Shown here in pieces: positions 713-60,336 of a stretch of 64,000 nucleotides of DNA (its first letter is position 1; each line of letters opens with the position of its first letter). The notes under the pieces are model-generated. The model was not told where the DNA came from. It searched no databases and was given only the letters and a program-made list of their open reading frames with translations. The DNA lies in contig JBCNUW010000001.1 in NCBI GenBank assembly GCA_039630575.1, positions 86,492 through 150,491 on the forward strand. The letters are read 5' to 3'. The DNA is from Candidatus Hydrothermales bacterium (GTDB lineage: Bacteria > Hydrothermota > Hydrothermia > Hydrothermales > JAJRUZ01). A program made the translations under genes and the position numbers.

Positions 713-760
713 TTTGACTCCTTTTTGAAAATTATACAGGGATTTAAAACCCTAAAGAAT

Positions 761-2527: not shown

Positions 2528-2759
2528 AAAAGATACTCATTAGAGTAAAATCAACAAACTTCTGTGATACGATAATACCAAGTACTGGTATTTTATTTAA
2601 GAAGTAAAAAAATCTGTAAAAAAAGTAATAAATAAGGATAAGTAAAATAGTTGCAAAAATTAATGGTAATGAAACTCTTTTCCAAAATGAAAAAGATTTT
2701 AAAAGATTTAATAAGATCCTTGATTTCAGATAAAAAAGTAAATAAATTTCCCTTATCAA
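2514..2759 (-). CDS. small hydrophobic ORF (81 aa), probably the N-terminal fragment of the downstream membrane protein
   Basis: Hydrophobic 81-aa ORF starting immediately after the cysC stop; ends ...MSIFFDII* overlapping the start of ORF 1166..2527 in another frame. Confidence 0.4.
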   Translation of the reverse strand: MIREIYLLFYLKSRILLNLLKSFSFWKRVSLPLIFATILLILIYYFFYRFFYFLNKIPVLGIIVSQKFVDFTLMSIFFDII

Positions 2760-3364
2760 ATGTAACCCAAATCCTCAAGCCTTTTTTTTATTTCTTCCTC
2801 TTCTTCCTCTGTATAGCCCCTTTCTTCCTCAATTTTCTCTATGAATCCATTTTCTTCCAGAAATTTTAAAATCTTATTTACACTCTCACTGACAGTTTCC
2901 TTTTCAGTGTCACATATAACCTCAGGATTTAGAGGTTCTTCATAGGGATCATCGATTCCTGTGAAATTCTTTATTATACCTTCTCTTGCTTTTCTATACA
3001 TACCCTTAACATCTCTCTTTTCACAAGTCTCTAAACTTGCTTTGACATAAACTTCAACAAACTTTGGTAAAAGCTCTCTTGCTTTTTGTCTTCCCTCTCT
3101 GTAGGGAGAGACTAGTGCCACTATTACATTTACTCCATGTTTTGTCAAAAGTTCGGAAAGCACAGAAACTCTCCTCATATTTTCGATTCTATCTTCTCTT
3201 GTGAAACCAAGATCTTTATTTAAAAAAGTCCTTACAATATCTCCATCAAGGATTTCCACATCTTCGTTTCTCTCTGAGAGTATTTCTGCTAACTTCTTGG
3301 CTATAGTGCTTTTACCAGAGCACGGTAAACCGGTAAGCCAAACACAAAAACCCCTTTTTTTCAA
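2756..3364 (-). CDS. cysC: adenylyl-sulfate (APS) kinase with acidic C-terminal extension
   Basis: GFCVWLTGLPCSGKSTIAKKL P-loop and overall APS-kinase pattern; C-terminus EEERGYTEEEEEEIKKRLEDLGYI. Confidence 0.85.
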   Translation of the reverse strand: MKKRGFCVWLTGLPCSGKSTIAKKLAEILSERNEDVEILDGDIVRTFLNKDLGFTREDRIENMRRVSVLSELLTKHGVNVIVALVSPYREGRQKARELLPKFVEVYVKASLETCEKRDVKGMYRKAREGIIKNFTGIDDPYEEPLNPEVICDTEKETVSESVNKILKFLEENGFIEKIEEERGYTEEEEEEIKKRLEDLGYI

Positions 3365-3429
3365 CTTTATTTGATAAAATTTTTAAGGCTTTGAACCTTT
3401 TTAATTCTCTCAGAGCAAAATTTTAACAC

Positions 3430-3458
3430 TTGACAAATTATTATTAATTATATTATAT
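3430..3458 (+). promoter_or_regulatory. candidate sigma70-type promoter for fbp-ptsH-ptsI (TTGACA-N17-TTATAT)
   Basis: TTGACA at 3430-3435; AT-rich -10-like hexamers 15-17 nt downstream; lies in the 180-bp divergent intergenic region. Confidence 0.3.
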
Positions 3459-3544
3459 TATAGTATTGAAAAAAGAAAAAATCAAATAAAAACATGGATT
3501 GAGGGTTCCAGGCCCTTATTATTTTGAAGTTGGAGGTTTTTTGA

Positions 3545-4639
3545 ATGAAGGTTACTGTAAGTGTAATCAAGGCTGATGTAGGGGGATATGTTGGTCATTC
3601 CAGTATGCATCCTGCTTTGATGGCATTAGCTGAGGATGAGCTTGAAGAGGCTAAAAAGAAAGGGATAATTATTGATTATTTCGTTGCTCATGCTGGTGAT
3701 GATCTTGAGCTTGTTATGACCCACACAAAAGGTATAGACAATTCTGATATTCATGGACTTGCCTTTCAAATTTTTAAAAAATGTACAAAAAAGGCTGAAG
3801 AGCTTGGATTATATGGAGCAGGACAAGATATACTTTCTGATGCCTTCTCAGGAAATATAAAGGGCATGGGACCAGGTGTAGCAGAAATGGAATTAGAGGA
3901 GAGAAGTTCAGAACCTATAATTATTTTCATGGCTGACAAAACCTCTCCAGGTGCTTGGAACTTACCATTATTTAAAATATTTGCTGATCCATTTAACACA
4001 GCTGGTCTTGTAATTGATCCTAAATTACATGACGGGTTTGTTTTTGAAGTACTTCATATGAAAGAAGGTAAGGTTGTTAAATTGAACTGTCCTGAAGAGA
4101 TGTATTCACTTTTAGCTCTTATTGGTGCTGTTGAAGTCTACGCAATAAAAAATGTATACAGAAAGGACGGTATAATCGCTGCAACTGCCTCAACGCAGAG
4201 ATTATCTCTGATAGCCGGAAGGTATGTAGGTAAGGATGATCCTGTTATGATAGTTAGAGCTCAAAGTGGTTTTCCTGCTGTTGGTGAGATTCTTGAAGCC
4301 TTTTCTCATGCACACCTTGTTGCTGGTTGGATGAGGGGTTCTCATTGGGGTCCACTTATGCCTGTATCAATGAAAGATGCTTCCTGTACAAGGTTTGATG
4401 GTCCTCCAAGAGTTGTTGCCCTTGGATTCCAGTTAAAGGATGGAAAACTCATCGGACCAAAGGACTTATTTGACGATCCTGCTTTTGATTTAACAAGAAA
4501 AAAGGCACAGGAAATTACAGATTATATAAGGAGGATGGGACCTTTTGAACCTCAAAGGCTTGGTTTAGAAGAAATGGAATATACAACTTTACCATCTGTT
4601 ATAGAGAAATTAAAAGATAGATTTATAGATCTTGATTGA
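3545..4639 (+). CDS. fbp: fructose-1,6-bisphosphate aldolase/phosphatase (class V FBPase, archaeal/deep-branching type)
   Basis: MKVTVSVIKADVGGYVGHSSMHP... N-terminus and family-wide conservation; GGAGG SD 8 nt upstream. Confidence 0.9.
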   Translation: MKVTVSVIKADVGGYVGHSSMHPALMALAEDELEEAKKKGIIIDYFVAHAGDDLELVMTHTKGIDNSDIHGLAFQIFKKCTKKAEELGLYGAGQDILSDAFSGNIKGMGPGVAEMELEERSSEPIIIFMADKTSPGAWNLPLFKIFADPFNTAGLVIDPKLHDGFVFEVLHMKEGKVVKLNCPEEMYSLLALIGAVEVYAIKNVYRKDGIIAATASTQRLSLIAGRYVGKDDPVMIVRAQSGFPAVGEILEAFSHAHLVAGWMRGSHWGPLMPVSMKDASCTRFDGPPRVVALGFQLKDGKLIGPKDLFDDPAFDLTRKKAQEITDYIRRMGPFEPQRLGLEEMEYTTLPSVIEKLKDRFIDLD

Positions 4640-6637: not shown

Positions 6638-7945
6638 TTAAAAAGATAACTTAAAACCTATGTTATTTATCTCCTTAATAACTAACCTTTCAAAATTAAA
6701 CTTTTTAATATCTTCTTCTGAGTCAATATAAGATTTAACATCTATTTCAGGGGCATCAAATTCGGTGTGTCCAAAGATTCTTTTATCTTTTTTATATTCT
6801 GGAATAAATGTTACCTTTTTACCTATCAACTTAACAAGTGAGTTATTATTTTTTTCTAATATAAGCCTTTCCATGATATTAAATCTTTCTTCAGTAATAG
6901 TCTTTTTAAGTAATTTATAGTTTTGAAAAGCAAAACTTTCTCTTTCAGGATGAAATTTAAAAAGAGCCCATCTTTTAAATATCTCATTTTTCTTACAAAA
7001 CTCGTAAAGTTCTTCAAAATCTTTTTCCTCCTCTTCAGGAAAACCCACAATTATTTCAGTTCTGATTGTCAAATCTCTTTGATTACTATACTTTTCAATC
7101 AATTCAAGGGCTTTAAAAACTGCCTTTTTACCACCTCTTCTTCTCATTTTCTTTAAAACACTCTCTGAAACATGTTGAATTGGTATATCAAGATAGGGAG
7201 CTATTTTTTCATTTTCAACTATTATTTTTAATGTTTCCTCATCTAAGTCAGCAGGATGGAGGTAGAAAACTCTCAAGATTTTGAGCTTTTTAAATTTTAA
7301 AAGCTTTTTTAGAAGATCTTTTAAACTTTTCCTTTTATAAAGATCAATTCCATAAAGACCTGTGGATTGAGAGATTAAAATTATCTCGTAGAATTCGGAA
7401 TCTAAAAGTGATTTTACCTCCTCCATAACCTTTTCCAATGGTTTTGATCGATATTTACCTCTTAAAAGTGGAATAATGCAAAAAGAACACTTTTCATTGC
7501 ACCCTTCTGATATTTTTAGGTAAGCATAATTTATGGTCGGAATAATTCTTGGTGTTTTTTCTGTATAAAGAAATTTTGGTGTATCAAAGCTTGGATTAAC
7601 CTTTCTATCAATTATTTTATCTATTTTTTTTATATCATCAAAACCAAATAAAAGATCTATTTCTTTAAATCTTTCTTTTATACTATCTTTAAACCTGTGA
7701 ACGTAACATCCTCCTACAGCAATATAGTTAATTTTTTTTCTTTTTTTAAGTTCAATAAATTTTCTTATAACCTCTTCAGTCTCCTTTACCGCAGGTTCAA
7801 TAAAGGCACAGGTCATTACGAAAACTGCTTGCGCATCATCTTGTTTAACTAATTCAAAACCACAATTAAGAAGTTTTCCTGCTAGGTATTCACTGTCTAC
7901 TTGATTTTTAGGACAGCCCAAGGTAACAATTGATATTTTTTTCAT
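6638..7945 (-). CDS. rimO: ribosomal protein S12 methylthiotransferase RimO (radical SAM MTTase)
   Basis: MKKISIVTLGCPKNQVDSE N-terminal MTTase domain, CNEKCSFC radical-SAM cysteine motif, C-terminal TRAM-like region. Confidence 0.8.
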   Translation of the reverse strand: MKKISIVTLGCPKNQVDSEYLAGKLLNCGFELVKQDDAQAVFVMTCAFIEPAVKETEEVIRKFIELKKRKKINYIAVGGCYVHRFKDSIKERFKEIDLLFGFDDIKKIDKIIDRKVNPSFDTPKFLYTEKTPRIIPTINYAYLKISEGCNEKCSFCIIPLLRGKYRSKPLEKVMEEVKSLLDSEFYEIILISQSTGLYGIDLYKRKSLKDLLKKLLKFKKLKILRVFYLHPADLDEETLKIIVENEKIAPYLDIPIQHVSESVLKKMRRRGGKKAVFKALELIEKYSNQRDLTIRTEIIVGFPEEEEKDFEELYEFCKKNEIFKRWALFKFHPERESFAFQNYKLLKKTITEERFNIMERLILEKNNNSLVKLIGKKVTFIPEYKKDKRIFGHTEFDAPEIDVKSYIDSEEDIKKFNFERLVIKEINNIGFKLSF

Positions 7946-7966
7946 TAAGTTATATTATAATATAAT

Positions 7967-8665
7967 TTGAATAACTTGAGAAATAAAGGACTTATATACG
8001 CGGTAGATGATGAATCTGATATTATAGATCTTCTAAGGCACCATCTTGAAAAAGTAGGTTATAGCTTTGAGGGATTTTATGATGCCTTGAGTTTCTTAAA
8101 TACTCTTAGGAGAAAAAAACCCGATCTTATAATTCTTGATCTTATGCTTCCAGATTATGATGGTATTGAATTGTGTAAGGAGTTAAAAAGAGAGAATGAT
8201 TATAAAGATATTCCAATAATTGTGCTTACAGCAAGATCAAAGATAGAGGAAAAAATTTTAGGTTTGGAAATAGGAGCGGATGACTATGTTACAAAACCTT
8301 TTTCTCCAAGAGAGCTTGTTGCAAGGGTAAATGCTGTTTTGAGGAGATATAAAGAAAAAGAGGAAGAAAAAGATGTTATTAAGGTAAATGACATTTTAAA
8401 AGTTGATATTAAAAAATATGAAGTTTATGTTAATAATAAAAAAGTTTATTTAAGACCAGCAGAATTCAAATTATTAAAACTTCTTGTTGAAAAAAAAGGT
8501 ATCTTATTTACTCGGAGACAGATTCTTGAATACATATCAAAGGGAAAAAAGATTGTTTATGAAAGGACTGTTGATGTTCATGTAAGAAACTTAAGGAAAA
8601 AACTTGGTGTAGCGGCAAAATTTATAAAAAACATAAAGGGTTTGGGGTATAAGTTTGAAACATGA
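7967..8665 (+). CDS. phoB: OmpR/PhoB-family response regulator (receiver + winged-helix)
   Basis: IYAVDDESDIIDLL...LDLMLPDYDGIEL...VLTARSKIEEKILGLEIGADDYVTKPFSPRELVARV; next to a histidine kinase and the pst operon. TTG start at 7967 or 7976. Confidence 0.75.
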   Translation: MNNLRNKGLIYAVDDESDIIDLLRHHLEKVGYSFEGFYDALSFLNTLRRKKPDLIILDLMLPDYDGIELCKELKRENDYKDIPIIVLTARSKIEEKILGLEIGADDYVTKPFSPRELVARVNAVLRRYKEKEEEKDVIKVNDILKVDIKKYEVYVNNKKVYLRPAEFKLLKLLVEKKGILFTRRQILEYISKGKKIVYERTVDVHVRNLRKKLGVAAKFIKNIKGLGYKFET

Positions 8666-10359
8666 ATAAAATAAATTTTAAGCTTACTTCAAGTTTTTTT
8701 CTTTTAATATTTTTTCTTACCCTTTTCATTTCAATTTTTCTATTTACAATCATAAGGAAAGAGTATTTAAAGGAAACAAAAAGAAATTTAGATAACTTTG
8801 TGACAATTTTAAATGAAAAGGTTAAAGTTTACCTTTTAAATAATGATTTAGAGAGTCTCAAAGGTGAAATAAAGATGCTTGGTGAAAAGGTTAATTTTGT
8901 TATAAGTGTTTATAATAATTCTGGCGAACTTGTAGCTGATTCAAAAATAGAAAATCTCTTAGACCAGGATAAAAGTAGACCTGAGATAGAAATAGCCTTG
9001 CATGGAGAAAAAGGATTCTTTGTAAGAAAAAGTGACACTTATAAAGGTAAATACATATTTCTAACTTTTCCTTTTGTTAAAAGTGAGGACGAAATTTTTG
9101 TTATCAGAGTAGGGGTTCCAGCAAGTGTTGTGGATAATTTTATATTAGATTTTATTAAGAGGGTAATATTAATCAGTTCAGTTCTTTTAATTATTTCACT
9201 TTTTATTTCCTTAATTCTTTCAAAACATTTTACTGATCCAATTAAAGATCTAATTTTTGCTTTCAAAAAAATCTCACATGGTGACACAAATATAAGGATA
9301 TTTTTAAAAAGGAATGATGAATTAGGTGATCTCACAAATAGTTTTAATGAGATGGTTATTAGTTTAAATAAAAACTTAAATGAGATAAAAAAGGAGAGAG
9401 CAACACTAGATTCTCTATTTAAAGCGTTACCTGACAATGTTTTTGTTTTAAACAAAAAGGGAGAAATACTTTACTATAATGAGAAAGTTAAGGAGTGTTT
9501 TAAAAATATAGAAAAATGTAAGTTTTATTATGAATTTTTAAAAGAGCCTGAATTTTCTAAAATTTTTGAGAAGGCAAATGAAAAAGAAGAGGCAGAGGGT
9601 CAAATAGGGTTTGAGTCAAAACTCTTTTATACAAAAATAAGAAAAATACCTGATACAGAAAATTTCATTGTAGTTCTAACAGACATAACAGAAGTTAAAA
9701 AACTTGAGGAGATAAAAAAAGACTTTACCATCAATATTTCACATGAAATAAGAACTCCTTTAACTCTTATAAAGGGGTATATAGAAACAATTGAGGAAGA
9801 GGAAGAAATAAAAAATAAAAATTATATTTCCATAATCAAAAGACATATTAACAGGTTAATAGAGTTAACTGAAAAAATAATTTATCTTTCACAGATAGAA
9901 ACTGAAAAGTTTCTACAAATTGAAAAAGTTAACATAAAAGAAATAATTGAAAATGTCGTACCAATTTTTGAAAAGAGATTAAAAGAAAAAGAAATATCCC
10001 TTAAACTTGAATTGGAAGAGGAATTTAGAGAAATCAAAGCTGACAAAACTAAGTTGGAGCAGGTTTTTATTAATCTTTTTGACAATTCAATAAAGTTTAC
10101 TACAAAAGGTGAGATAAGGGTTAAGATTCAAAGAAGAGATAATTTTGTGAGAATTGAGTTCATTGATACTGGAGAGGGTATCGAAGAAAAACATTTACCT
10201 AGGATATTTGAAAGATTTTATGTTGGCTCAAGGGAAAAAGCTGGTTTTGGACTCGGTTTATCAATAGTTAAACATATAATTAATTTACACAATGGTAAAA
10301 TTAGTGTAGAAAGTCAAAAAGGTAAGGGAACAAAATTTATAATTGAATTACCTATTTAA
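8662..10359 (+). CDS. phoR: sensor histidine kinase (2 TM, periplasmic sensor, HAMP, HisKA, HATPase_c), PhoR-like by context
   Basis: H-box ISHEIRTPLTLIKGY; G-boxes IDTGEGI and GFGLGLSIVKHIINLHNG; ATGA overlap with the regulator gene. Confidence 0.75.
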   Translation: MNKINFKLTSSFFLLIFFLTLFISIFLFTIIRKEYLKETKRNLDNFVTILNEKVKVYLLNNDLESLKGEIKMLGEKVNFVISVYNNSGELVADSKIENLLDQDKSRPEIEIALHGEKGFFVRKSDTYKGKYIFLTFPFVKSEDEIFVIRVGVPASVVDNFILDFIKRVILISSVLLIISLFISLILSKHFTDPIKDLIFAFKKISHGDTNIRIFLKRNDELGDLTNSFNEMVISLNKNLNEIKKERATLDSLFKALPDNVFVLNKKGEILYYNEKVKECFKNIEKCKFYYEFLKEPEFSKIFEKANEKEEAEGQIGFESKLFYTKIRKIPDTENFIVVLTDITEVKKLEEIKKDFTINISHEIRTPLTLIKGYIETIEEEEEIKNKNYISIIKRHINRLIELTEKIIYLSQIETEKFLQIEKVNIKEIIENVVPIFEKRLKEKEISLKLELEEEFREIKADKTKLEQVFINLFDNSIKFTTKGEIRVKIQRRDNFVRIEFIDTGEGIEEKHLPRIFERFYVGSREKAGFGLGLSIVKHIINLHNGKISVESQKGKGTKFIIELPI

Positions 10360-10390
10360 CAAAAATTTAACAAAAATTTAACAAAAATTT
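10358..10390 (+). promoter_or_regulatory. three perfect tandem 11-bp direct repeats (AACAAAAATTT)x3; candidate Pho-box-like operator
   Basis: Starts at the HK stop codon and ends 26 bp upstream of the pstC ATG; 11-bp periodicity matches one helical turn, as for OmpR/PhoB direct-repeat sites. Confidence 0.4.
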
Positions 10391-13594: not shown

Positions 13595-13623
13595 TTGAAA
13601 ATTAAATTATAAAATCTTATAAT
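13595..13623 (+). promoter_or_regulatory. sigma70-type promoter TTGAAA-N17-TATAAT for the lipoprotein gene cluster
   Basis: TTGAAA 13595-13600, TATAAT 13618-13623, 17-nt spacer; AAAGGAG SD before ATG 13678. Confidence 0.55.
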
Positions 13624-13677
13624 TAAAATAAAATTTGGGTTCAATTCCCCTTAAAAAAATTATAAAGGAGTAATATT

Positions 13678-13947
13678 ATGAGGAAATTTTTGTTGCTAAT
13701 CCCAATTTTTGGGATATTCCTTGTTTCCTGTCAGCTTCCACCTGAAATAAAAGAATTACCGGAAAAGATGAACGAGTTTAAAACTAAAGTAGAGGAACTT
13801 GAGGGTAAGGTTTCTGATCTTGAGTCTAAAATTGAGGAGCTAAAAACAAAGATAGAAGAGATGGAAAAGGCAAAATCACAACCTGAAGTTAAAAAGGAAA
13901 GCAGCGGAACACAAACACCTAAAGTTCCACCCATAAGAAAAAAATAA
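13678..13947 (+). CDS. small coiled-coil lipoprotein (Lpp-like)
   Basis: Signal peptide with LVSC lipobox, then heptad-like E/K-rich helix KVEELEGKVSDLESKIEELKTKIEEMEK. Confidence 0.6.
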   Translation: MRKFLLLIPIFGIFLVSCQLPPEIKELPEKMNEFKTKVEELEGKVSDLESKIEELKTKIEEMEKAKSQPEVKKESSGTQTPKVPPIRKK

Positions 13948-13959: not shown

Positions 13960-14736
13960 ATGAAAAAAATTTTATTAATTTCAGGTTTGTTTTTAATACT
14001 TTTAGTTTTTATAGGTTGTCCTGAAGATGAAGAATTGCCAACACCTAATGCAAGAATTGCAAGCATTTTAGAGCAGGGTGAAGGAATAAGACTCGAATGG
14101 GATCCTGTTGAAGGTGCTGATGGTTACAGAGTTAGAGTTGACGACGAATTGAAGTATGAAGGAACAAGTACATATTTTGAGTGGAAAACACCTGCATTAA
14201 AAATAGAAGTTTATGCCTATGCTGGGGATAAGGAATCTACCCCAAGAGTTTTTGACTTCACACCTGTTTCAAGAACTTCTCAAGAATTATGGGAAAGAAG
14301 CGCAGCTGGTAACAGTGGCTATGGCTGGAATGCAGATGGAACAGGTTCAAGCTACTCTTTGGGAGATGCTGCAAATCATTCAAGAATAGATTTTTATTTG
14401 GATGACTTTACTGCTGGGACTGTAGACGTTTCAAATATTTACTTGGTAAGTCCTCATCACGGGGGATTTAACGATACTGAAACAGGTTTTGCTGTTGAAA
14501 CAGGTGGAACAGGTAATATAGCACCAGCTCCTGGAACCTATGATACTCCCAGACCACAAAGTCCAATAGTATCTGGAGGAACTTACTTTTTATGGATAGA
14601 TCACAGTAATAACGAGTGGACTAGTGATGATAATTTTGTTAAAATAAAGATAATTTCTATAGGCAATGATGGAAAGGTTGTATTTGACTATTGGTTCCAG
14701 AAACAAGGTGGACTTCGCTGGCTAAAGACAAATTAA
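13960..14736 (+). CDS. lipoprotein with fibronectin-III-like domain, unknown function
   Basis: Signal peptide + FIGC lipobox; RLEWDPVEGADGYRVRVDDE FN3-like segment. Confidence 0.6.
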   Translation: MKKILLISGLFLILLVFIGCPEDEELPTPNARIASILEQGEGIRLEWDPVEGADGYRVRVDDELKYEGTSTYFEWKTPALKIEVYAYAGDKESTPRVFDFTPVSRTSQELWERSAAGNSGYGWNADGTGSSYSLGDAANHSRIDFYLDDFTAGTVDVSNIYLVSPHHGGFNDTETGFAVETGGTGNIAPAPGTYDTPRPQSPIVSGGTYFLWIDHSNNEWTSDDNFVKIKIISIGNDGKVVFDYWFQKQGGLRWLKTN

Positions 14737-14760
14737 ATTAAATTAAATTAAATTAAATTT
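14731..14760 (+). repeat. simple tandem repeat (AAATT)x6 directly after the stop codon
   Basis: aaattaaattaaattaaattaaattaaatt read directly. Confidence 0.8.
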
Positions 14761-14789
14761 CCCCCCCAATATTTGGGGGGGTTTTTTTT
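14761..14789 (+). terminator. Rho-independent terminator: 9-bp GC stem CCCCCCCAA/TTGGGGGGG, 3-nt loop, T8 tail
   Basis: cccccccaa-tat-ttggggggg followed by tttttttt; perfect hairpin plus U-tract. Confidence 0.9.
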
Positions 14790-14833
14790 ATAATAAGTTG
14801 AATATAAAATTAAATTTTTCCTAACATAAACTC

Positions 14834-24067: not shown

Positions 24068-25939
24068 TCATTTTTCACCTCTTTTTGAAATAATAGCTAT
24101 TAAACCACCAACAAAAATTAAAAAAGTTCCAATCCAAACAAGTTGAATTAGAGGATTGTAAAAAAATTGAACATAAACAGTTTTATCTTCCTCCCAACCT
24201 TGTATTACAGCGTAAATATCACCATATAAAAGAGGTAAAACATCCATCTCTGCTGAGGGTTGTTCCCAGTTATGATAAAACCTTAAAGCAGGATAAAGCT
24301 CTCCCTCTAATTTACCTTTATTTTTTATTAAGAATTTACCTTTAACTTCGTCATAATTATGTCCAGAACCGAAAGTAAGTCCCTCATATTCTATTTCAAA
24401 ATTTTTGAATTTTACTTTTTCACCTGTTTTAAATTTCATTTCTTTTTGTTCCTTAAATCCATAAGAGGATATTATGCCTATTGCTGATATAACTATTCCT
24501 AAATGAATTAAAAAGGGACCTGTTTTACTTATTAAAAATTTTACTTTATTTATTTCTTTAAAATAGTAATACAAATTTGATAAAAAGGCGAAGGAGGATA
24601 AACCGTAGCCAAGCACAGCTCCAGGATGACGGGAAATTTTAATAAAAACAATAGAAGAAATAATTACGCTTATAAGTAAGGAGAGAAAAAGAAAAATCCT
24701 TGATGGATTTTTATAAGTGTAAATGAAAATACCAAGAAGCAAAAGGATTAAAAGAAAAAAAGGACCAGTTGATTTAACAAAAAATAAAGACGAAACAGTT
24801 ATTTTTTGACCTGTGAAGAGCTCTGAAATTATAGGAAAAAATGTGCCGAATAGTGTTATCAGAGCGATTGCTATAAGAGAAAAAACAAATATCAAAATAA
24901 AGCCTTCTAATCCCAAAAAATTAAACCTTTCACTCTCTTTTGAAAATTTATTCTTGAATTTAATAACAGCTAAAATTAGAAAAGAAAGATTTATAAAAAC
25001 AAAAGCTCCAAAATAAGGTCCTATTTCACTTTCAGCAAAGGCATGAACAGAAGATAAAACTCCGCTCCTTGTGATATAAGTTCCTGTTAAAACAAGCACA
25101 AAAGTTATTATAATTAAGGAAAGATTCCATAACTTTAAAGTACTTTTTGTTTCTTGAATAAAAAGAGTATGAACAAAAGCTGTAGATGTTAACCATGGTA
25201 AAAAGGAGGCATTTTCTACAGGATCCCATGCCCAGTAACCTCCCCAACCAAGCTCAATATAGGCCCACCTACCTCCAACTACAATTCCAATTGATAAAAA
25301 TAGCCACGAAATTAACGTCCATTTTCTAATCTCCAAACCCCAATCCTTTCGTTCGCCTTTTATAAAAATAGCAACAGCATAGCCTAAAGGTATTGCAAAA
25401 CCCACATATCCTAGATAAATTGCAACAGGGTGAACTAACATCCACACATTTTGAAGAAGTGGATTTAAACCCTTACCATCAGGAGGAGAAAAAGGAAGTG
25501 TTTTAAAAGGATTGGTAAAAAAGAGAGTTATAAATATAAAGAAAAGGTTTATTATAGAAATTACAGCATAAGAAATAATTCTGTGGAAATTTTCATTTTT
25601 GACTGAAAACATGTAAACAAGAAAGTATATAGATAGTATCAAAATCCAAAAGAGCATAGAACCATCCATACCAGCCCAGAAGGCTGAGAATTTATAAATA
25701 AAAGGCAAGTTTCTTGATGTATAATTTGCTACATATAAGACTCTAAAATCAGAAGATAAAAGAAGATACCAAAGGATAATAGAGGAGAGAATTACAAATA
25801 TTGATCCTAAAACAACAGCTCTTTTTCCAGCTTCAACAAATACATTATCCTTTTTTATAAAAAAATAAATAAATAAAAATGAGGATAACAAAAAACAAAT
25901 AAAAGAACCAGTTAATGCAGAGTATCCAAGATCTGCCAT
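24068..25939 (-). CDS. ccmF: cytochrome c-type biogenesis heme lyase, CcmF/NrfE family
   Basis: 623-aa polytopic protein with the tryptophan-rich WWD signature WAYIELGWGGYWAWDPVENASFLPWL. Confidence 0.75.
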   Translation of the reverse strand: MADLGYSALTGSFICFLLSSFLFIYFFIKKDNVFVEAGKRAVVLGSIFVILSSIILWYLLLSSDFRVLYVANYTSRNLPFIYKFSAFWAGMDGSMLFWILILSIYFLVYMFSVKNENFHRIISYAVISIINLFFIFITLFFTNPFKTLPFSPPDGKGLNPLLQNVWMLVHPVAIYLGYVGFAIPLGYAVAIFIKGERKDWGLEIRKWTLISWLFLSIGIVVGGRWAYIELGWGGYWAWDPVENASFLPWLTSTAFVHTLFIQETKSTLKLWNLSLIIITFVLVLTGTYITRSGVLSSVHAFAESEIGPYFGAFVFINLSFLILAVIKFKNKFSKESERFNFLGLEGFILIFVFSLIAIALITLFGTFFPIISELFTGQKITVSSLFFVKSTGPFFLLILLLLGIFIYTYKNPSRIFLFLSLLISVIISSIVFIKISRHPGAVLGYGLSSFAFLSNLYYYFKEINKVKFLISKTGPFLIHLGIVISAIGIISSYGFKEQKEMKFKTGEKVKFKNFEIEYEGLTFGSGHNYDEVKGKFLIKNKGKLEGELYPALRFYHNWEQPSAEMDVLPLLYGDIYAVIQGWEEDKTVYVQFFYNPLIQLVWIGTFLIFVGGLIAIISKRGEK

Positions 25940-26960: not shown

Positions 26961-27956
26961 TTAACCTCCTTTGATTTGAAAAGGATACTTAGTATAGGGA
27001 TCAAAGAATTCATTTTTAACTTTTTTGTTTTTAAATAAATAATAAGCTCTCACCCCTATCATAACTGCGTTGTCACCACAAAATTCTTTTTCAGGGAGTA
27101 AAACTTCACCAAGGTTTTCCCTCAGAAGCGTTCTTAGCCTATTATTTACTGCTACTCCTCCTACAACTGAAACTCTTAGATCTTTAATATCTAAAAGAAT
27201 TATCGCTTCCTTCAATTTATCTAAAAGATGTGTAAAGACAGTTTCTTGAAAAGATGCTGCAATATGAGGTTTTAAATTCTCAAATTCATTTTCTCCTATT
27301 TTTTCAATAAATCTTATAAGAGAGGTTTTCAAACCACTGAAGCTGAATGTAAAAGGCTTAGTCTGGGGTAGAGGAAATTTAAAAAAGTTTTTATCACCCC
27401 TTTCAGCAAGTTCTTCAAGTCTTTTCGCTCCAGGATATTTAAAACCAAAGAGCCTTGCAGCCTTATCAAGACACTCACCACCAGCATCATCAAGTGTTCC
27501 CCCAAGATAAACAATTTCATCTATATCCTTTATTAAAAAAAGCTCTGTATGTCCACCTGAAACAAGAAGGGATAGAACGGGAAATTCAAGTTCCTTATTT
27601 ATGAATATAGAAAATAAGTGACCTTCAAGGTGATCAACTCCATAAAAAGGAATTGATAAAGAATTAGCAATAGACTTTCCAAATACAAACCCTACCAGTA
27701 AAGATCCAATTAAACCTGGTCCTTGAGTAGCAGTAACAATATTAACATCCTTTAAGTCTATCTCGGCAACTTCAAGTGCAAGCTTTAATGAAGGCACTAT
27801 TATTTCCATATGTGTCCTTGATGAAAATTCAGGCATTACACCACCAAAATCTATTCCTGAAATATGAGACGAGAGAATATGGGACTTTACTTTTTTATTT
27901 TCTAACACTGCTACAGAGGTTTCATCACAAGAGGTTTCAAAAGAAAGAATAAACAT
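26961..27956 (-). CDS. tsaD: tRNA N6-adenosine threonylcarbamoyltransferase TsaD (Kae1/Gcp)
   Basis: ILSFETSCDETSVAVL N-terminus, GVMPEFSSRTH, ATQGPGLIGSLLVG, GVDHLEGHL metal-binding His pair. Confidence 0.9.
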   Translation of the reverse strand: MFILSFETSCDETSVAVLENKKVKSHILSSHISGIDFGGVMPEFSSRTHMEIIVPSLKLALEVAEIDLKDVNIVTATQGPGLIGSLLVGFVFGKSIANSLSIPFYGVDHLEGHLFSIFINKELEFPVLSLLVSGGHTELFLIKDIDEIVYLGGTLDDAGGECLDKAARLFGFKYPGAKRLEELAERGDKNFFKFPLPQTKPFTFSFSGLKTSLIRFIEKIGENEFENLKPHIAASFQETVFTHLLDKLKEAIILLDIKDLRVSVVGGVAVNNRLRTLLRENLGEVLLPEKEFCGDNAVMIGVRAYYLFKNKKVKNEFFDPYTKYPFQIKGG

Positions 27957-28011: not shown

Positions 28012-28971
<960 letters not shown>

Positions 28972-31215: not shown

Positions 31216-31794
31216 TTACTGACCTGATGTAAGAACTATTGGAATATTTCTCTTAGAACCAAAACCACCGATTGCATAACCTGAAGCTGCTTGTCCTGCT
31301 GCAGGTGTCCATTGTGCCGGGTTGTTTGGGTCAAGATCATATGAACCATACTGAATCATTCCAGCATTAGCAGCATTGTAAGCTGGGTCAAAAACACCAT
31401 TTCTATCGTTATCAACACCTCCAGGACCACTTTGAAAAGCATTTGTAGCAGCTCTAACAGGATTGTGAAAATCTACAGGCAGCAAAATTGGTCCAGTGGT
31501 AGTAGGCCTAAGACCAGATGCAGCTCCAGCCACTGATGTATTGTCACCCACTGGAGGGAGTCCTACAGCTTGCCTTGCTTGATCAACAGTAATAGCAAAA
31601 TTTTGTGGATAAAATCCTTCTGTAGAGGTTGAGAATGCTTCTGCAGCTGTTTGTGAAGTTTTCATATTACTCTGAACAGAAGCATCTTTTGCCTTTCCTA
31701 CCATAGCAATGAAGTTGGGTATAGCTATAGCAGCAAGAATACCAATGATTACTACTACGATGAGTAGCTCTATTAAGGTAAAGCCTTTCTTCAT
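31216..31794 (-). CDS. type IV pilin (prepilin N-terminal cleavage/methylation domain), low-complexity A/G/P/T/N-rich body
   Basis: MKKGFTLIELLIVVVIIGILAAIAIP class III signal with G-1/F+1; coding GC clearly above the window average; GGGAGG SD. Confidence 0.85.
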   Translation of the reverse strand: MKKGFTLIELLIVVVIIGILAAIAIPNFIAMVGKAKDASVQSNMKTSQTAAEAFSTSTEGFYPQNFAITVDQARQAVGLPPVGDNTSVAGAASGLRPTTTGPILLPVDFHNPVRAATNAFQSGPGGVDNDRNGVFDPAYNAANAGMIQYGSYDLDPNNPAQWTPAAGQAASGYAIGGFGSKRNIPIVLTSGQ

Positions 31795-31861
31795 TTTATT
31801 TTACCTCCCTTAATTTACTTTGGGATTTGAACCCTATATTCAACTTTTTTTAATTTTTTAT

Positions 31862-31879
31862 AGCAAAGTTTGTTCCACA
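31862..31879 (-). promoter_or_regulatory. candidate sigma54 (-24/-12) promoter TGGAACA-N4-TTGCT upstream of the pilin gene
   Basis: Minus strand reads gtTGGAACAaactTTGCTa (GG-N10-GC spacing exact) about 70 nt upstream of the ATG; palindromic AAATTTGCAAATTT elements lie further upstream (31921-31950). Confidence 0.45.
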
Positions 31880-44570: not shown

Positions 44571-47476
44571 TTTATTCCCATGGAGTTTTTGAGAGAGTCT
44601 ATTTTATTCTTTACAAAATCAGGCAAATTTTTGATTCTTTCAACAAGTTTAAGAACATTTTTAAAGTTAACAGTATCTTTTTTTAAGTAATAGAGAGTAA
44701 GAAGATCCAAAACCAAAAAAGGATCAGCATACCTAAGGCTTAAAGCTTTGTTAAAGTTTTCTTCAGCCTTATCTAACTGTCCCATTCCAAGATAACTTTC
44801 ACCCATTACTCTAAAGATTTCTGGGAATTGGGCTTCTTTTAAAGCGTCTTGTGCCTTAATTAAAGCCTTTTCAAACATACCAGCACGATTATATAGATCT
44901 GCTAATGTTAATTTTACAGCTAACCAAGCCCTTTTTTCGTCTGGTTCATCTCCCTTTATATCTCCCTCAAAAAGCTCAGAAAACTCAAATTCTTTTATTG
45001 CCTTTTCTAAATCACCTACAGACTGATAATAAAGTCCAAGAACTATTGCTAAGGATCTATACTGAGCAAGTAGCCTATCGTGTGTTAAATCCTTAAAAAC
45101 ACTTTCATCCTTTTTTCCATTTTTTATTATTCCCCTATATCTAAATTTTTTATGCAAATATTCCTCAGTTTTTTTAACATCCATCCCAGTTCCAAAAGGA
45201 GAATTTATTTCCTGTTTTATTGGTGTTACTCTGTATACCATTCCTTCAAGTAAAAGGTAGTCTGTATAGTCTTTGTATGCTTTTCTCTCACAAGTCATCG
45301 AAAAAAATAAAGGTGGGGTAGGATTTTTATTTTTACCCTTTTCTAAAACTTCTCTCATAAATTCTTCACCACTTAGAAGAAATATTTCAGGTATTTGGAC
45401 TCCAGTTGGTAAGGTTTTTGTCTTTGTATCCTTGCCAAATTCATAGCCAAAAACTCCAGCAATTATATCTCTTATCATAATATCTCTTATTAAAACTATC
45501 CCTCTTTCTGTCCTAAAAGGAACAAGTTTTTTTATCTCATCATCTGAAAAATGAATTGGAACCCCCCATCTTTTGAGTTGTATGTTATACCAATCTGTAT
45601 TCAAAAGAGAAAGATTAGCAACGATCACATTTTTTTTGTATCCAAATATATTCTGTAAAGCCCATAGGGGAAAAGTATCATTGTCACCATTTGTAAAAAC
45701 TATTCCACCATCATCAACACAAGAAAGAAGATTGTAAGAATAATCCTCTGCTATATAATTTGAACTTCTATCGACCTTATGATAAAAGGCGCTAATTTGC
45801 CATATGGGTATTAAAAGCGAAAAAATTATAAAAATATACCTAAAATAAGGTAGAAATTTTTCTTTTAAATTTTCAAAGGTTAACCTGATAACTTCAAAGA
45901 ATCCAAAACCAGCATATAGGCCAAAAATGAAGTAGCCTGGAATAAAAAAATAATCTCTGTCTCTCACTTCTGTAGGAATTGAGCCCAAAAGCTGTAGAAA
46001 ATTTTGATTATTTGGATCGAAAATTGAAATAACTTCTCTAATTCTTGGAGAAAACAGAATTTTTGGAAACTGTTTAATAAAATCAAGAAAAGTTATGAGG
46101 GTAGAAGGATAATTTAAATTAAGTTGAACAATAAGTCCAAAAGTGCCCATTATAAGGGCACCTCCAAATAAAACAAAACTTTTAATATCAGAGTATAGAT
46201 GAGCTATTATTCCTAAAATTCCTAAAATTACAATAAGAGGTATAAATTGGAAAGAAAAGTAATACAAAAATCCCCAGATCTGGTCTATAAAAGCCCAAAA
46301 TTGATTATAAACAGGAACTGAGATAAATTCTCCCTCTCTTACATTACTTGTTCTTCGTGGGAAAACATTCATAGGTTCGTACTGCTTTCTAGACAAAACA
46401 TCCCAAAAAGCTTGCCAGGTTTTAGGCTCTACTTGATTTATTGGAATATCAAACCTAGATCTTATCAGAAGATAAGCCTCAGGAGTGACTCCTAAAAGAA
46501 TCATTAAAAGTGTGAATCCCCTTGCATCTATGTAAAGTTTTACATAGAGGAAAAATATAATAAATGTTAAAAGTGCTGAAATAAAAATTAATATTTTCCA
46601 GTGATTAAATATGGAAATAAAAGAAATAAGTGCTAAAATAAAGTAAATTAGATCAAAAGAGTTAAAAAGAAACTTTCTGTTGTGTTTTTCCCATAAACTT
46701 AAATAGGTTAAAGTATAACCTAAAAATAAAAAAACTATTAAAGCTCTAAAACTAAAAGGTTCATAAGTCGCTCTTAATGCACCTATAAAAAGAAAGAGGA
46801 AACCTAAGGAAGAAAAAAATTGTACATTTAAAATTTCTTCTTTCTTAACGAAAATTATAAACAAAATCAAAACAGGTACTATAATTAATGACAAAAGATG
46901 TATACCTGAACTTAAAGATAGAAAATAAAAGGCAGTAATTATATACCTTAAAGAATCCTTCTTATCCTTTCTTTCCCACCATGTATATAGAAAGTAAACT
47001 GAAAGGATTATAAAAAATGTTGAAGGCATGTAAGTTTCTGCTTCAATACTACTCCACCAAGTTGTAAAAGCAAAAGGTGCACATATTGATCCCATGAAGG
47101 CTGAAAATTGAATTAAAATATCAGGAACTTTCTTGGAGACTCTGTTTAAAATCTTATATAAAAGCAAATAACCTAATGCAGATGAAAAAGCACCAGAGAG
47201 AATAGAGATAAGTGTGATTTTTTGAACTGTATTTAAAAATGGTACAGGAAGTAAAGCAAAAAACCTTCCAACAATAACATAAAGAGGTGTTCCCGGAGGA
47301 TGAGGAATACCTAAAATATAGGAAGTTGCTAAAAATTCTCCTACATCCCAGAAAACAATTGTGGGAGCTGTTGTTTTAAGGTAAATTAAAAAAGTAATTA
47401 AAAAAGAAAAGAAGAAAAATACCTTAGTTAATTTCCTACTTTCCATAATGTTCTTCCATTTCACCTTCTTCTTCAA
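44567..47476 (-). CDS. DUF2723/TMEM260-like polytopic membrane (putative glycosyltransferase) protein with C-terminal TPR repeats
   Basis: FWDVGEFLATSYILGIPHPPGTPLYVIVGRFFAL N-terminal signature, many TM helices, TPR-like C-terminus; real start may be the internal Met 10 codons downstream. Confidence 0.65.
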   Translation of the reverse strand: MKKKVKWKNIMESRKLTKVFFFFSFLITFLIYLKTTAPTIVFWDVGEFLATSYILGIPHPPGTPLYVIVGRFFALLPVPFLNTVQKITLISILSGAFSSALGYLLLYKILNRVSKKVPDILIQFSAFMGSICAPFAFTTWWSSIEAETYMPSTFFIILSVYFLYTWWERKDKKDSLRYIITAFYFLSLSSGIHLLSLIIVPVLILFIIFVKKEEILNVQFFSSLGFLFLFIGALRATYEPFSFRALIVFLFLGYTLTYLSLWEKHNRKFLFNSFDLIYFILALISFISIFNHWKILIFISALLTFIIFFLYVKLYIDARGFTLLMILLGVTPEAYLLIRSRFDIPINQVEPKTWQAFWDVLSRKQYEPMNVFPRRTSNVREGEFISVPVYNQFWAFIDQIWGFLYYFSFQFIPLIVILGILGIIAHLYSDIKSFVLFGGALIMGTFGLIVQLNLNYPSTLITFLDFIKQFPKILFSPRIREVISIFDPNNQNFLQLLGSIPTEVRDRDYFFIPGYFIFGLYAGFGFFEVIRLTFENLKEKFLPYFRYIFIIFSLLIPIWQISAFYHKVDRSSNYIAEDYSYNLLSCVDDGGIVFTNGDNDTFPLWALQNIFGYKKNVIVANLSLLNTDWYNIQLKRWGVPIHFSDDEIKKLVPFRTERGIVLIRDIMIRDIIAGVFGYEFGKDTKTKTLPTGVQIPEIFLLSGEEFMREVLEKGKNKNPTPPLFFSMTCERKAYKDYTDYLLLEGMVYRVTPIKQEINSPFGTGMDVKKTEEYLHKKFRYRGIIKNGKKDESVFKDLTHDRLLAQYRSLAIVLGLYYQSVGDLEKAIKEFEFSELFEGDIKGDEPDEKRAWLAVKLTLADLYNRAGMFEKALIKAQDALKEAQFPEIFRVMGESYLGMGQLDKAEENFNKALSLRYADPFLVLDLLTLYYLKKDTVNFKNVLKLVERIKNLPDFVKNKIDSLKNSMGIK

Positions 47477-50090: not shown

Positions 50091-50167
50091 CTTAAATAAA
50101 TTTTTATATAAAATTTATGAGGAATTGAACCCTATTACTTAAACTTATTACTCAAAAATTAAAGTTA

Positions 50168-50197
50168 ATTTTAAAATGATTTATTAAATAAATTCAA
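50168..50197 (-). promoter_or_regulatory. candidate sigma70 promoter TTGAAT-N18-TAAAAT for ppdK, overlapping the 3' end of the upstream gene
   Basis: Minus strand: TTGAAT (50197-50192), TAAAAT (50173-50168). Confidence 0.4.
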
Positions 50198-54741: not shown

Positions 54742-54814
54742 TTTAAAGATAAAATAAAAGGATTTGAACCACTAAAATTATTCTCCCTATAAATATTTTC
54801 CTAAATTCTAAAAA

Positions 54815-55012
54815 CTATTTCTTCAATAAGCCTTCTATGGGCTTTAAAAATTGCTCAACTGTAATGTAGGGATTTACCCTAAGAGCTTTTTCTATAATTT
54901 TTTTTCTTTCTTCCTCACTTTCAGCTTTTAAATATTTTTCTCTTAATTTTTTAATTTTCCATTTACGATGCCTTTTTCGATTAAGTTCGGTTTCTCTTAG
55001 TCTTCCTTTCAT
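54815..55012 (-). CDS. small basic protein (65 aa, K/R-rich), unknown function
   Basis: MKGRLRETELNRKRHRKWKIKKLREKY...; coding potential consistent with neighbours, no homology recognised. Confidence 0.4.
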   Translation of the reverse strand: MKGRLRETELNRKRHRKWKIKKLREKYLKAESEEERKKIIEKALRVNPYITVEQFLKPIEGLLKK

Positions 55013-59030: not shown

Positions 59031-60336
59031 CCTTAAGTCTCTCCTCTTTAAAAGGGATAGAACCTTTTAGTGAAAAAATTCTAATGAAAAAGACTGTAAA
59101 AATTAAAGCATTTATAAATGTGGCAAAGCTATTTAAGGAAAGTAAGAAAATTATTTTATTTTTAAAATCTATTATAAAAAAAGGTAGTGTTAATATTAAA
59201 AGCCAAAGGAGTAGATTCTTAAAAACTATTCCTTCCTTTTTTATTGCAAAAAATACTCTTGAGAAAAATCTTGAAAAAAGATAAAAAAGAAGAGATAAAG
59301 AAAGAAGCAAAAATTCATCAGTATAAAATTTAAACTTATTCTTTGGAAAAAAAAGATGAAGAAAGGACTTACCGATTGATACTATGAAGATTGTAAAAAA
59401 TACTAAAGAGATAAAAATAAGAATTGAAGAAAGAACGATTGTTCTAAAAAATTTTTTTCTTTTTCCCTCATAATAGGAACTGGAAATGTGGGGATAAACT
59501 GGCACAAAATAGGAATTAAATAGAAGTTTAACAGCCTGAAAGATTGAAATTTCGGCTGTAAAATTACCGATTAAATCATCAGCAACATTTTTTAATTTTA
59601 AAAGCAAAATAGGGTAACTAAAGTAACTTTGAATGAGTGTATTTGAAAAACCCATTGAGAAAATTCCCCCTTTTAAAAAATTTAAATTTATCTTAAAGAG
59701 AAAACTCCTTTTAAGATAAATTAAATAAAAAAGGAAAAATAAAAAATTAGAAAGTTCAGATAAAATGTAAACTACTATAAATAAATTAATCCTATCTATC
59801 CCCTTAATAAAGTAAAAAAAACCAAAAAGTAAGAAAAATAATCCTTTTAAAATGTTAACTAAACTAAAGGCATAAAAAAGCCTTTTTCCTATAAGGAAGC
59901 CAATCCCTATTGAGGAAAAAATTGAAAAAAAATGAACTAAGAAAGCACCAAATAAGATGAAAAAATCATTGTTAAAAAATTTCTTTAATAATAAATCTTT
60001 TAGAATTAAGAAAAATAAAATAGAGAGAAGAAATACAAGAGATATATACGTAAAAGATTCATCAACTAAATCCTTGATTTTTTCACTTTCACCCTTAGCC
60101 TTCAATTCGACAATTTTTCTTGAAAGATAGTCTCTAAATCCAGATCCAAGTAAAAAAGAGGTAAAATTATAAAAGGAATAGAAAACTCCAAGAATCCCAA
60201 CACCCTCTGAACCAATTACTTTTCCTGAAAATGACAAAAATAGAAAATAAAAGAAGGATTGTGAAAAGTGGCCAAAGGTAGTCCAAATTGTTCCACCTAT
60301 TAAACCCTTTGTAAATAATAATTTTTTTAAAATAAT
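59014..60336 (-). CDS. Wzx-like polysaccharide flippase (MOP/PST family); TTG at 60237 is the first canonical start but the conserved N-terminus extends upstream to a candidate ATT start
   Basis: ~12 TM protein; region in frame upstream of 60237 encodes [51 protein letters not shown], matching the Wzx N-terminal pattern; GGAGGA SD 6 nt before ATT 60336-60334. Confidence 0.55.

Follow-up and report, generated by a model that had tools for sequence, protein, structure and literature searches.

A conserved hairpin resembling the tRNA T-arm precedes the start codons of unrelated genes in a clade of Hydrothermales

Why should a short sequence resembling the T-arm of tRNA recur just ahead of the start codons of genes that have nothing obvious in common? 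This question is raised by a 64,000-nucleotide stretch of DNA from a Candidatus Hydrothermales bacterium (assembly GCA_039630575.1, contig JBCNUW010000001.1, positions 86,492 to 150,491 of the forward strand; hereafter, the window). A preliminary description, made from the letters alone, listed five such copies, and their sequences, strands and coordinates were all confirmed. We found that these copies belong to a larger set of small hairpins with a T-loop sequence, which lie in the sense orientation at a restricted distance from gene starts and are retained at orthologous positions in related lineages. The conservation of this hairpin suggests that it mimics the tRNA T-arm and that tRNA-handling machinery may act on the mRNAs that carry it.

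The exact motif GGTTCAAWTCC was present in four copies in the window (30.7% G+C), versus 0.05 expected, and none of 100 shuffled sequences reached four. When one mismatch was allowed, the excess was weak (8 matches versus 2.97 expected), so that the site upstream of cysC, GGTTCAAAGCC, could not be judged on this count alone. The one-mismatch matches at 18783, 25461 and 45975 reached only 15.0 bits (under the E = 10 listing threshold) and 11.1 bits in a covariance-model search. Comparison with relatives revealed a fuller consensus, GGTTC-N-A-N-N-CC, which matched seven sites in the window, versus 0.99 ± 0.95 and a maximum of 4 in 200 first-order Markov simulations. The consensus initially proposed, GGTTCAA(A/T)TCC, was thus enriched but too narrow, as the fuller pattern added two sites, upstream of the FBPase and transaldolase genes. 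A covariance model built from 21 instances, with a 5-bp stem and a 7-nt loop, was scored at every position of both strands; it returned exactly these seven sites in the window, at 20.0-25.6 bits, with the next best at 15.4 bits (Table 1).

All seven canonical copies were sense-oriented relative to the next gene, and the last C of the motif lay 18-30 nt from the start codon, where 19-31 nt had been given for the five original sites. Over 24 instances, including those in relatives, the gap ranged from 18 to 36 nt, with a median of 25.5 nt. Of the 18 intergenic gaps that exceed 40 nt in the window, 6 (about one third) contained the hairpin; one of the 6 has two copies, one for each divergent gene. 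No tRNA gene was found in the window by ARAGORN, and no Rfam family was detected at gathering thresholds, with none overlapping any site even at E ≤ 5, including RF00005. No cloverleaf or tRNA-like fold was observed that would place the element among tRNA or tRNA-like RNAs (RF00005, tmRNA, tRNA-like domain of bacterial Y RNA).

Table 1. Hairpins and predicted promoters in the window. ORF, open reading frame; L numbers designate loci in relatives (see text); scores in bits are from the covariance model, and fractions are promoter consensus matches.
Feature	Coordinates	Strand	Sequence	Score	Context	Relatives
cysC hairpin	3381..3403	-	GGTTCAAAGCC at 3387-3397	23.5 bits	22 nt before TTG start of cysC (APS kinase, 2756-3364; Pfam APS_kinase)	GGTTCAACTCC (L088), GGTTCCAGCCC (L091)
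FBPase hairpin	3498..3520	+	GGTTCCAGGCC at 3504-3514	20.0 bits	30 nt before ATG of class V fructose-1,6-bisphosphate aldolase/phosphatase (3545-4639); absent from preliminary description	GGTTCAATTCC (L088, L091)
Lipoprotein hairpin	13632..13654	+	GGTTCAATTCC at 13638-13648	25.6 bits	29 nt before ATG of 89-aa coiled-coil lipoprotein (13678-13947; call rests on ORF and lipobox-like signal peptide), 13 nt before its AAGGAG	GGGG-TCCGAAT-CCCC, U55-to-C variant (L088, L089, L090)
Pilin hairpin	31817..31839	-	GGTTCAAATCC at 31823-31833	23.7 bits	28 nt before ATG of type IV pilin (31216-31794; Pfam N_methyl)	GGGTTCAAATCCC unchanged at 13/13 positions in L177, L178, L179 (four genomes with the window), flanks diverged
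ppdK hairpin	50115..50137	-	GGTTCAATTCC at 50121-50131	24.5 bits	30 nt before ATG of ppdK (47436-50090)	Kept in five orthologs: GGTTCTATTCC, GGTTCAACTCC, GGTTCAAATCC (last in three lineages)
Isochorismatase hairpin	54754..54776	-	GGTTCAAATCC at 54760-54770	23.2 bits	18 nt before ATG of isochorismatase-family gene (54139-54741), after small DUF6800-like ORF	GGTTCGATTCC (L081), GGTTCAAATCC (L082), GGTTCAATTCC (L181)
Transaldolase hairpin	59048..59070	-	GGTTCTATCCC at 59054-59064	24.6 bits	23 nt before ATG of transaldolase (58335-59030), within 3' end of upstream ORF (59014-60237); absent from preliminary description	GGTTCTATCCC (L081), GGTTCCAATCC (L082)
Degenerate relative	734..757	-	AGGG-TTTTAAAT-CCCT	11.8 bits only	Precedes malic-enzyme gene (ATG at 712; gene runs past window edge)	
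Sigma-70-type promoter, lipoprotein	13595..13623	+	TTGAAA-17-TATAAT	11/12		Conserved in L088/L089/L090
Sigma-70-type promoter, ppdK	50168..50197	-	TTGAAT-18-TAAAAT	9/12		TTGAAT...TTAAAAT also in L081
Sigma-70-type promoter, FBPase	3430-3459	+	TTGACA-18-TATATT	11/12		
Sigma-70-type promoter, cysC	3485-3457	-	TTGATT-17-TATAAT	10/12		
Sigma-54-type promoter, pilin	31862..31877	-	TGGAAC-N5-TTGCT		Read from sequence	

The comparison with relatives covered the neighbourhood of the window, about 240 kb of non-redundant clade DNA, all from metagenome-assembled genomes. Syntenic loci were obtained from five further lineages: GCA_039630235.1 (L081, L177); the GCA_0398038xx-039804065 group (L082-L090); JGI metagenome contigs (L091-L093); ERZ650669 (L179, L181) together with FWWL01008926 (L094); and GCA_024277525.1 (L174, L178). 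A PPDK search of metagenome contigs supplied L094 and L095, and the PPDK relatives at 91, 84, 83 and 79% identity were also from Hydrothermales/WOR-3 metagenome-assembled genomes. For all seven canonical sites, every orthologous position tested among the five other Hydrothermales lineages had kept the motif while the flanks had diverged, as expected from the initial proposal of a conserved, orientation-specific mRNA-leader element. In the alignment of pilin leaders, for example, the only conserved islands were the sigma-54 promoter, the 13-mer GGGTTCAAATCCC and the Shine-Dalgarno sequence.

A PPDK search of genome contigs returned relatives at no more than 72% identity, mostly from other phyla, and these were used as negative controls. 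The motif was missing upstream of ppdK in relatives at 72% (L001, L095) and 68% identity (L175, 'Hydrothermia'), and in these three loci the pattern occurred only inside real tRNA genes. In 237 kb of clade DNA, 23 of the 26 pattern matches lay 18-36 nt before a gene start, and ARAGORN found no tRNA gene in nine clade loci. The control loci from other phyla (2.23 Mb) contained 93 matches, 36 of which were in ARAGORN-called tRNA genes; among the other 57, 11 had some ORF start 18-36 nt downstream by the same loose test, and these starts were taken to be mostly internal in-frame ones. The element is confined to one Hydrothermales clade.

To what extent does the element resemble a T-arm? Numbered as in tRNA, G52, G53, T54, C56, A58, C61 and C62 were invariant in the 24 canonical instances, and position 55 was T in 23 and C in one. 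The remaining positions varied: position 57 was A in 16, C in 3, T in 3 and G in 2; position 59 was A in 11, T in 9, G in 2 and C in 2; and position 60 was T in 19, C in 3 and G in 2. The loop was always 7 nt long. The fixed positions match those fixed in the T-loop of tRNA, namely the G53-C61 closing pair, the U54-A58 pair, U55 and C56, and the positions free to vary are those that are free in tRNA. The element thus carries GUUCNANNC, the substrate consensus of the pseudouridine synthases Pus4 and TruB (PMC13492117), with G53, T54, C56, A58 and C61 present in 24/24 instances and T55 in 23/24, and its stem falls within the range of a minimal substrate of the TruB/Pus4 type (at least 2-3 bp, with an optimum of about 5-6).

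The pairing of the stem was assessed on a 26-instance alignment, with 500 column shuffles and slid-helix controls. A 5-pair helix was paired in 83% of cases, versus 73% in column shuffles, and its covariation score was 0.317, versus 0.153, exceeding every slid control; none of the 500 shuffles reached either value. As orthologous instances are interdependent, these shuffle statistics are inflated, and the independent evidence consists of eight distinct loci, the flanks of which are unrelated to each other. The third pair formed in 23 of the 26 instances and covaried (GC 13, AU 5, GU 3, CG 2), and among the ppdK orthologs alone it was found as G-U, G-C, C-G (twice) and A-U (twice). The FBPase stem has 6 pairs and showed a compensatory t-a / a-t change relative to L091, while that of the transaldolase hairpin (AAAAGG/CCTTTT) has 6-7 pairs. 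Contiguous stems ranged from 2 to 13 pairs (median of 4), with 2-7 pairs in 20 of the 21 measured instances. The stem is made up of two invariant G-C pairs (G52-C62 and G53-C61), the covarying third pair and mostly A-U extensions, giving one to four variable pairs beyond the invariant two; the T-arm likeness initially described was thus upheld, by the invariant loop positions and the covariation, but not the 3-5 bp GC stem. Minimum-free-energy z-scores were about 0 at 37 °C, meaning that the hairpins are not more stable than shuffled sequences, which rules out a thermodynamically strong hairpin. Such weak intrinsic stability would point to specific recognition rather than to a merely strong hairpin.

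The longest stem was observed in the locus from GCA_024277525.1 (L174, 895-905, minus strand), between a 1144-aa gene and a 289-aa gene. This hairpin has a perfect 13-bp stem (cagatagggagGG / CCctccttatctg), with TTCAATT as its T-loop and TTTT after it. In length it equals a minihelix composed of an acceptor stem and a T-arm, and it also resembles an intrinsic terminator, as read from the sequence and not from a scan.

Some copies were degenerate. In the malic-enzyme leader, orthologs of the 734..757 copy also exhibited a GGG/CCC hairpin (AGGG-TTAAATT-CCCT in L088, 15.2 bits; GGG-TCCAACC-CCC in L091, 14.6 bits), and we tentatively consider this copy to be the eighth member of the hairpin family. 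A further degenerate copy, AAAGGG-TTGAAAT-CCCTTT, precedes a secreted-protein gene in L174. The four degenerate copies with a 7-nt loop, including the lipoprotein variant of L088, retained the stem, T54 and A58; the malic-enzyme copy of the window has an 8-nt loop, so positions 54 and 58 are not assignable there.

Is the element part of the promoter, or of the transcript? Promoter and transcription start site positions were predicted by consensus. The two promoters named in the preliminary description, those of the lipoprotein and ppdK genes, were recovered by our promoter scan, and a TGGAAY-N5-TTGCW sequence before the pilin gene was conserved in four Hydrothermales genomes. The predicted distance from the transcription start site to the hairpin was about +7 for the lipoprotein gene, +18 for pilin, +30 for ppdK, +37 for FBPase and +52 for cysC, and the element was thus independent of the predicted promoter position. 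A location shortly after the transcription start site, as initially suggested, was therefore not borne out; the spacing under constraint is that to the start codon and Shine-Dalgarno sequence. Lipoprotein orthologs differed in the spacing between -10 box and hairpin (15 nt in the window, 32 or 56 nt in L088/L089/L090), whereas the spacing between hairpin and AAGGAG stayed at 10-13 nt. In the lipoprotein leader of L089 (20160-20210), a 24-nt AT-rich insertion (a duplicated 'aaaaatatataaa'-like unit) was observed between the -10 box and the hairpin, in genomes otherwise near-identical to L088 and L090, which shows that this segment is free to vary in length. Where a Shine-Dalgarno sequence exists, it lies about 8-15 nt from the hairpin; ppdK, the isochorismatase gene and cysC have none.

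The element is not confined to primary leaders. Two copies lie between same-strand genes (isochorismatase operon and malic enzyme), and the transaldolase copy lies in the 3' end of the upstream ORF. The isochorismatase hairpin is placed between the stop codon of the DUF6800-like ORF and the isochorismatase start. The counterpart in relatives of this very basic ORF of about 65 aa (54771-55055, minus strand; MKGRLRETELNRKRHRKWKIKKLREKYLK...) is a 67-aa DUF6800 gene, which was called between the PBP and isochorismatase genes. In the divergent gap at 3365-3544 (180 bp), two overlapping back-to-back promoters and two T-arm hairpins were observed, serving the cysC operon and the FBPase-HPr-PtsI operon.

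As the distance to the ribosome-binding site or start codon is constrained and the promoter distance is variable, the pattern indicates a leader RNA element tied to the ribosome-binding site. Given its strand specificity, covariation beyond the span of a transcription bubble and an exact T-loop consensus, we infer that it is a transcribed RNA hairpin tied to translation starts, and not a promoter element or a double-stranded operator. No fixed spacing to a partner hexamer or to the transcription start site was found, and the aligned flanks contained no conserved partner.

Several other assignments were examined and rejected. Were the motif a -35 hexamer with a -10 box 17 bp downstream, clear Shine-Dalgarno sequences would be excluded from the transcripts, and -10-like hexamers downstream of the motif are uninformative, as AT-rich DNA offers them at any offset. 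A Bacteroidetes-type TAnnTTTG -7 box abuts the motif at 2-3 sites only, and this organism uses TTGAAT-17-TATAAT. An inverted repeat TTGAA...TTCAA, as expected for a dimeric operator, was present at the pilin site only. Use of the 3' strand of the hairpin as an anti-Shine-Dalgarno switch would be possible for the lipoprotein and pilin genes, but ppdK, isochorismatase and cysC lack a Shine-Dalgarno sequence. Pairing of the loop with the 5' end of 16S rRNA (AAUUGAA) fits UUCAAUU loops only, and the loops vary. Finally, intrinsic terminators, which consist of a G+C-rich stem of five or more pairs and a U tract after it, do not account for the element: the terminator scan was negative at the lipoprotein and ppdK sites. 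The FBPase hairpin fits the loose terminator pattern when read in another register. Copies located between divergent promoters cannot terminate an upstream gene.

What, then, could read such a hairpin? A T-arm consensus is unlikely to arise by accident, and the hairpin may thus be read by something that reads T-arms. The explanation that we put forward, plausible yet tentative, is that the T-arm mimic is recognised by a T-arm-binding protein that would set the translation or the protection of the mRNA. The hairpin, located in leaders and intercistronic regions, would sit at the 5' edge of the region bound by the ribosome (30S). Its reader would be a protein that normally recognises the T-arm of tRNA, such as a TruB-type pseudouridine-55 synthase, TrmFO/TrmA, TrmI, or a derivative of one of these; once bound near the ribosome-binding site, it would modulate initiation or protect the leader. 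Many unrelated genes would be placed under such control, and the reader might be titrated by the pool of (immature) tRNA. In vitro, isolated stem-loops with 3-12 bp and the GUUCNANNC consensus were modified by E. coli TruB at rates that differed from the tRNA rate by no more than sixfold (PMC13492117), and a map of five bacterial species reported GU-psi-CG sites in mRNA, with a mean modification of 19%, for which TruB was suggested (PMC13236023). It is also possible, though less likely than not, that the mimic has spread to the leaders of a large share of transcription units and recruits tRNA-maturation machinery, forming either a global translational/stability regulon under a T-arm-binding enzyme or a bacterial equivalent of tRNA punctuation and t-element processing in mitochondria.

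Several points weigh against recognition by a T-arm-binding protein. TruB is stated to target only tRNAs in bacteria, and it bound all the isolated stem-loops tested weakly, with a KD above 1 µM (PMC13492117). U55 is replaced by C in the lipoprotein ortholog of L088, and the malic-enzyme copies alter C56, U55 or the loop length; catalysis at U55 thus cannot be essential at every site. Unlike in tRNA, position 57 was a pyrimidine in 6 of the 24 instances. The flanks of the stem are of low complexity (A-rich 5', U-rich 3'), and slid controls still paired in 55-72% of cells. No T-arm-specific protein was found nearby, either by Pfam on 30 window proteins or in the gene calls of relatives; the tRNA-related proteins seen were TsaD, AspRS and a MiaB-like radical-SAM enzyme in the window and RtcB in the gene calls of relatives, none of them T-arm-specific. 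Lastly, unlike thrS, the target genes do not encode the presumed reader.

Alternative explanations were also weighed. According to one, which we consider unlikely but credible, the hairpin is a processing signal of the t-element type, recruiting RNase Z, RNase P or a lineage-specific nuclease, and a cut beside it would give the mRNA a defined 5' end, so that the leader would either be short or begin with the hairpin, which would then serve as a protective cap. In Arabidopsis mitochondria, t-elements were found by a near-identical motif, GGTTCRANYCC, just upstream of mapped mRNA 5' ends (PMC1920247). Trimming to a common 5' end would also give a constrained distance to the start codon and a variable one to the promoter; cleavage at the intercistronic copies (isochorismatase operon, transaldolase, malic enzyme) would separate cistrons; and the 13-bp hairpin of L174 has the minihelix length. 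Such processing is difficult to reconcile, however, with the lack of a tRNA-like body (nothing by ARAGORN, and no Rfam tRNA at E ≤ 5), and RNase P and RNase Z measure roughly 12 bp, well above the stem length in nearly all the measured instances (2-7 contiguous pairs in 20/21). The predicted lipoprotein and pilin leaders extend only about 7-18 nt 5' of the hairpin, which is too little for an acceptor strand, and no RCCA-like tail follows the stems on the 3' side. A passive role appears rather improbable: the T-loop-capped hairpin would insulate the ribosome-binding site or slow 5'-end-dependent decay with no dedicated trans-acting factor, its loop sequence being kept only for an unusually compact fold. 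5' hairpin stabilisers such as that of ompA are well known in bacteria, and a passive module could explain why the hairpin persists where the loop degenerates (malic-enzyme copies, U55C in L088), why the pair defining the T-loop fold, T54 and A58, never varies (24/24), and why genes of very mixed function carry the hairpin in both primary leaders and intercistronic regions. It does not explain the retention of U55 (23/24) and C56 (24/24), which are unneeded for the T-loop fold. Moreover, the stems are short and their stability does not exceed that of shuffled sequences, three-pair stems such as that of pilin would be marginal in a presumably thermophilic host, and the hairpin is not at the 5' end of the predicted transcripts.

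An element acting as DNA, i.e., an operator downstream of the promoter, an alternative-sigma promoter element or an ops-like signal of the NusG/RfaH type, is very unlikely, even if a strictly conserved, orientation-specific 11-mer in leaders is what would be expected of an ops-like or operator site, and several sites head long same-strand arrays (ppdK down to about 31954, the lipoprotein cluster, the cysC operon). A DNA site would have no reason to coincide exactly with a T-loop; the flanking pairs covary, in stems that reach 5-13 bp, beyond a transcription bubble; the motif lacks palindromic symmetry; it follows complete sigma-70 or sigma-54 promoters at a spacing of 15-56 nt and is thus no promoter hexamer; and it is the distance to the start codon that is constrained. 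The ops sequence is GGCGGTAGNNTG, which forms a mini-hairpin on the non-template strand, and the motif is unrelated to it; no ops or RfaH-type site was recognised here. Chance, the decay of tRNA genes and a small mobile repeat were also considered: of the conserved parts of a tRNA gene, the 11-mer is the most common, and in other phyla 36 of the 93 matches fell in tRNA genes. Such an origin is nevertheless hardly conceivable in view of the counts (4 versus 0.05 and 7 versus about 1 expected), the sense orientation of all copies at 18-36 nt, the absence of any tRNA-like flank, the mutually unrelated flanks, and the maintenance of copies at orthologous sites in six lineages.

If the hairpin is a T-arm mimic read by a T-arm-binding protein, how does it compare with known systems? 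The tRNA T-arm itself, as the minimal substrate of TruB/Pus4, TrmA/TrmFO and TrmI, shares with the element the 7-nt loop, G53-C61, U54, U55, C56 and A58, as well as a stem centred on 4-5 pairs. Unlike tRNA, the element has no acceptor, D or anticodon arm, lies in mRNA leaders near start codons, and has a pyrimidine at position 57 in a quarter of the instances. The nearest precedents are sporadic T-loop-like modification sites in mRNA, plant t-elements, and single-gene tRNA mimics (the thrS operator and yjdF). T-loop-like sites in eukaryotic and bacterial mRNA are scattered, located mostly in coding or 3' regions, modified sub-stoichiometrically, and not known to be conserved. The element, in contrast, has a set position ahead of start codons, is conserved among lineages and occupies about one in three intergenic gaps. 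The eukaryotic sites of TRUB1/Pus4 (pseudouridine) and TRMT6/61A (m1A) are likewise of the GUUCNANNC type within a short stem-loop (PMC5340967, PMC13492117), and the GUUCNANNC motif is modified less than 2% of the time (PMC13492117).

Plant mitochondrial t-elements immediately precede mRNA 5' ends or follow 3' ends, and they were proposed to be cis-signals for tRNA-processing enzymes; they fold as tRNA-like non-canonical cloverleaves, the ends of which match mapped termini (PMC1920247). Our hairpins, by contrast, are not embedded in a tRNA-like fold with an acceptor-type stem. When they were compared with the t-element motif GGTTCRANYCC, GGTTC.A..CC was invariant apart from T55C in one ortholog, position 57 was a purine in 18/24 and position 60 a pyrimidine in 22/24. 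The yjdF riboswitch is a mimic of the whole tRNA shape that binds small ligands (PMC9142559). Unlike yjdF, the element mimics the T-arm only and is found before many unrelated genes. The E. coli thrS operator mimics the anticodon arm beside the ribosome-binding site, and ThrRS autoregulates that single gene through it. As in thrS, a tRNA-domain mimic is located here directly upstream of the Shine-Dalgarno sequence or start codon; unlike in thrS, no autoregulation is apparent, since the targets are APS kinase, FBPase, a lipoprotein, a pilin, PPDK, an isochorismatase-family protein and transaldolase. The element also resembles 5' stabilisers such as that of E. coli ompA, being a short leader hairpin before the ribosome-binding site, on genes for abundant proteins such as pilin and lipoprotein. 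Stabilisers of the ompA type lack loop conservation and have to be placed at the extreme 5' end, whereas the loop is the most conserved part of the element, and 7-52 nt separate the hairpin from the predicted 5' ends. Our literature searches surfaced no account of a conserved T-arm mimic ahead of start codons in bacteria, and we know of none.

The presence of the hairpin in 6 of 18 gaps, upstream of genes of very mixed function, does not establish the regulon that had been envisaged, and the element resembles a leader module of general use rather than the mark of a single pathway. Besides the genes with hairpin-bearing leaders, many genes appear to be leaderless, their start codons following TATAAT-like boxes by 5-8 nt; examples include the divergent radical-SAM/response regulator pair (21-bp gap, 7945-7967), a ccmF-like gene (24068-25939), and tsaD (26961-27956) and the recF-like gene at 28012. 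Leaderless genes and genes with hairpin-bearing leaders seem to be two main gene-start classes in this organism.

Other features were observed in the sequences analysed. Three tandem 11-bp copies of TTAACAAAAAT (10356-10388, plus strand) lie between a PhoR-like histidine kinase gene (8662-10359) and a pstC-like permease gene (10417); these repeats look like Pho boxes for a response regulator of the OmpR family that is encoded nearby (7967-8665), and PhoU is encoded downstream. After the second gene of the lipoprotein cluster (14730-14790, plus strand), (AAATT)x5 is followed by a strong terminator-like hairpin, CCCCCCC-AATATTT-GGGGGGG plus T8, the loop of which is not a T-loop. Two metagenome PPDK homologues, P0074 and P0078 (about 1310 aa), contain intein/homing-endonuclease domains (PF14528, PF14890) inserted in the enzyme.

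The prevailing view is that enzymes which modify or process tRNA do not act on bacterial mRNAs, or do so only occasionally. If a T-arm reader does bind the hairpin, this clade would offer a natural example of mRNA expression coupled to tRNA-maturation machinery throughout the genome, with probably more than 100 copies per genome if the density of the window holds, a frequency that is an extrapolation from the region sampled. Should the hairpin instead mark sites of cleavage, we know of no earlier analogue of t-elements in bacteria. As a compact RNA motif of 11-23 nt, it is directly testable and is a candidate for a new Rfam family, and its use as a marker could improve the annotation of gene starts and operons in WOR-3/Hydrothermae metagenome-assembled genomes. 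For the organism itself, such a system, if real, may link tRNA supply to the translation of central-carbon and cell-surface genes.

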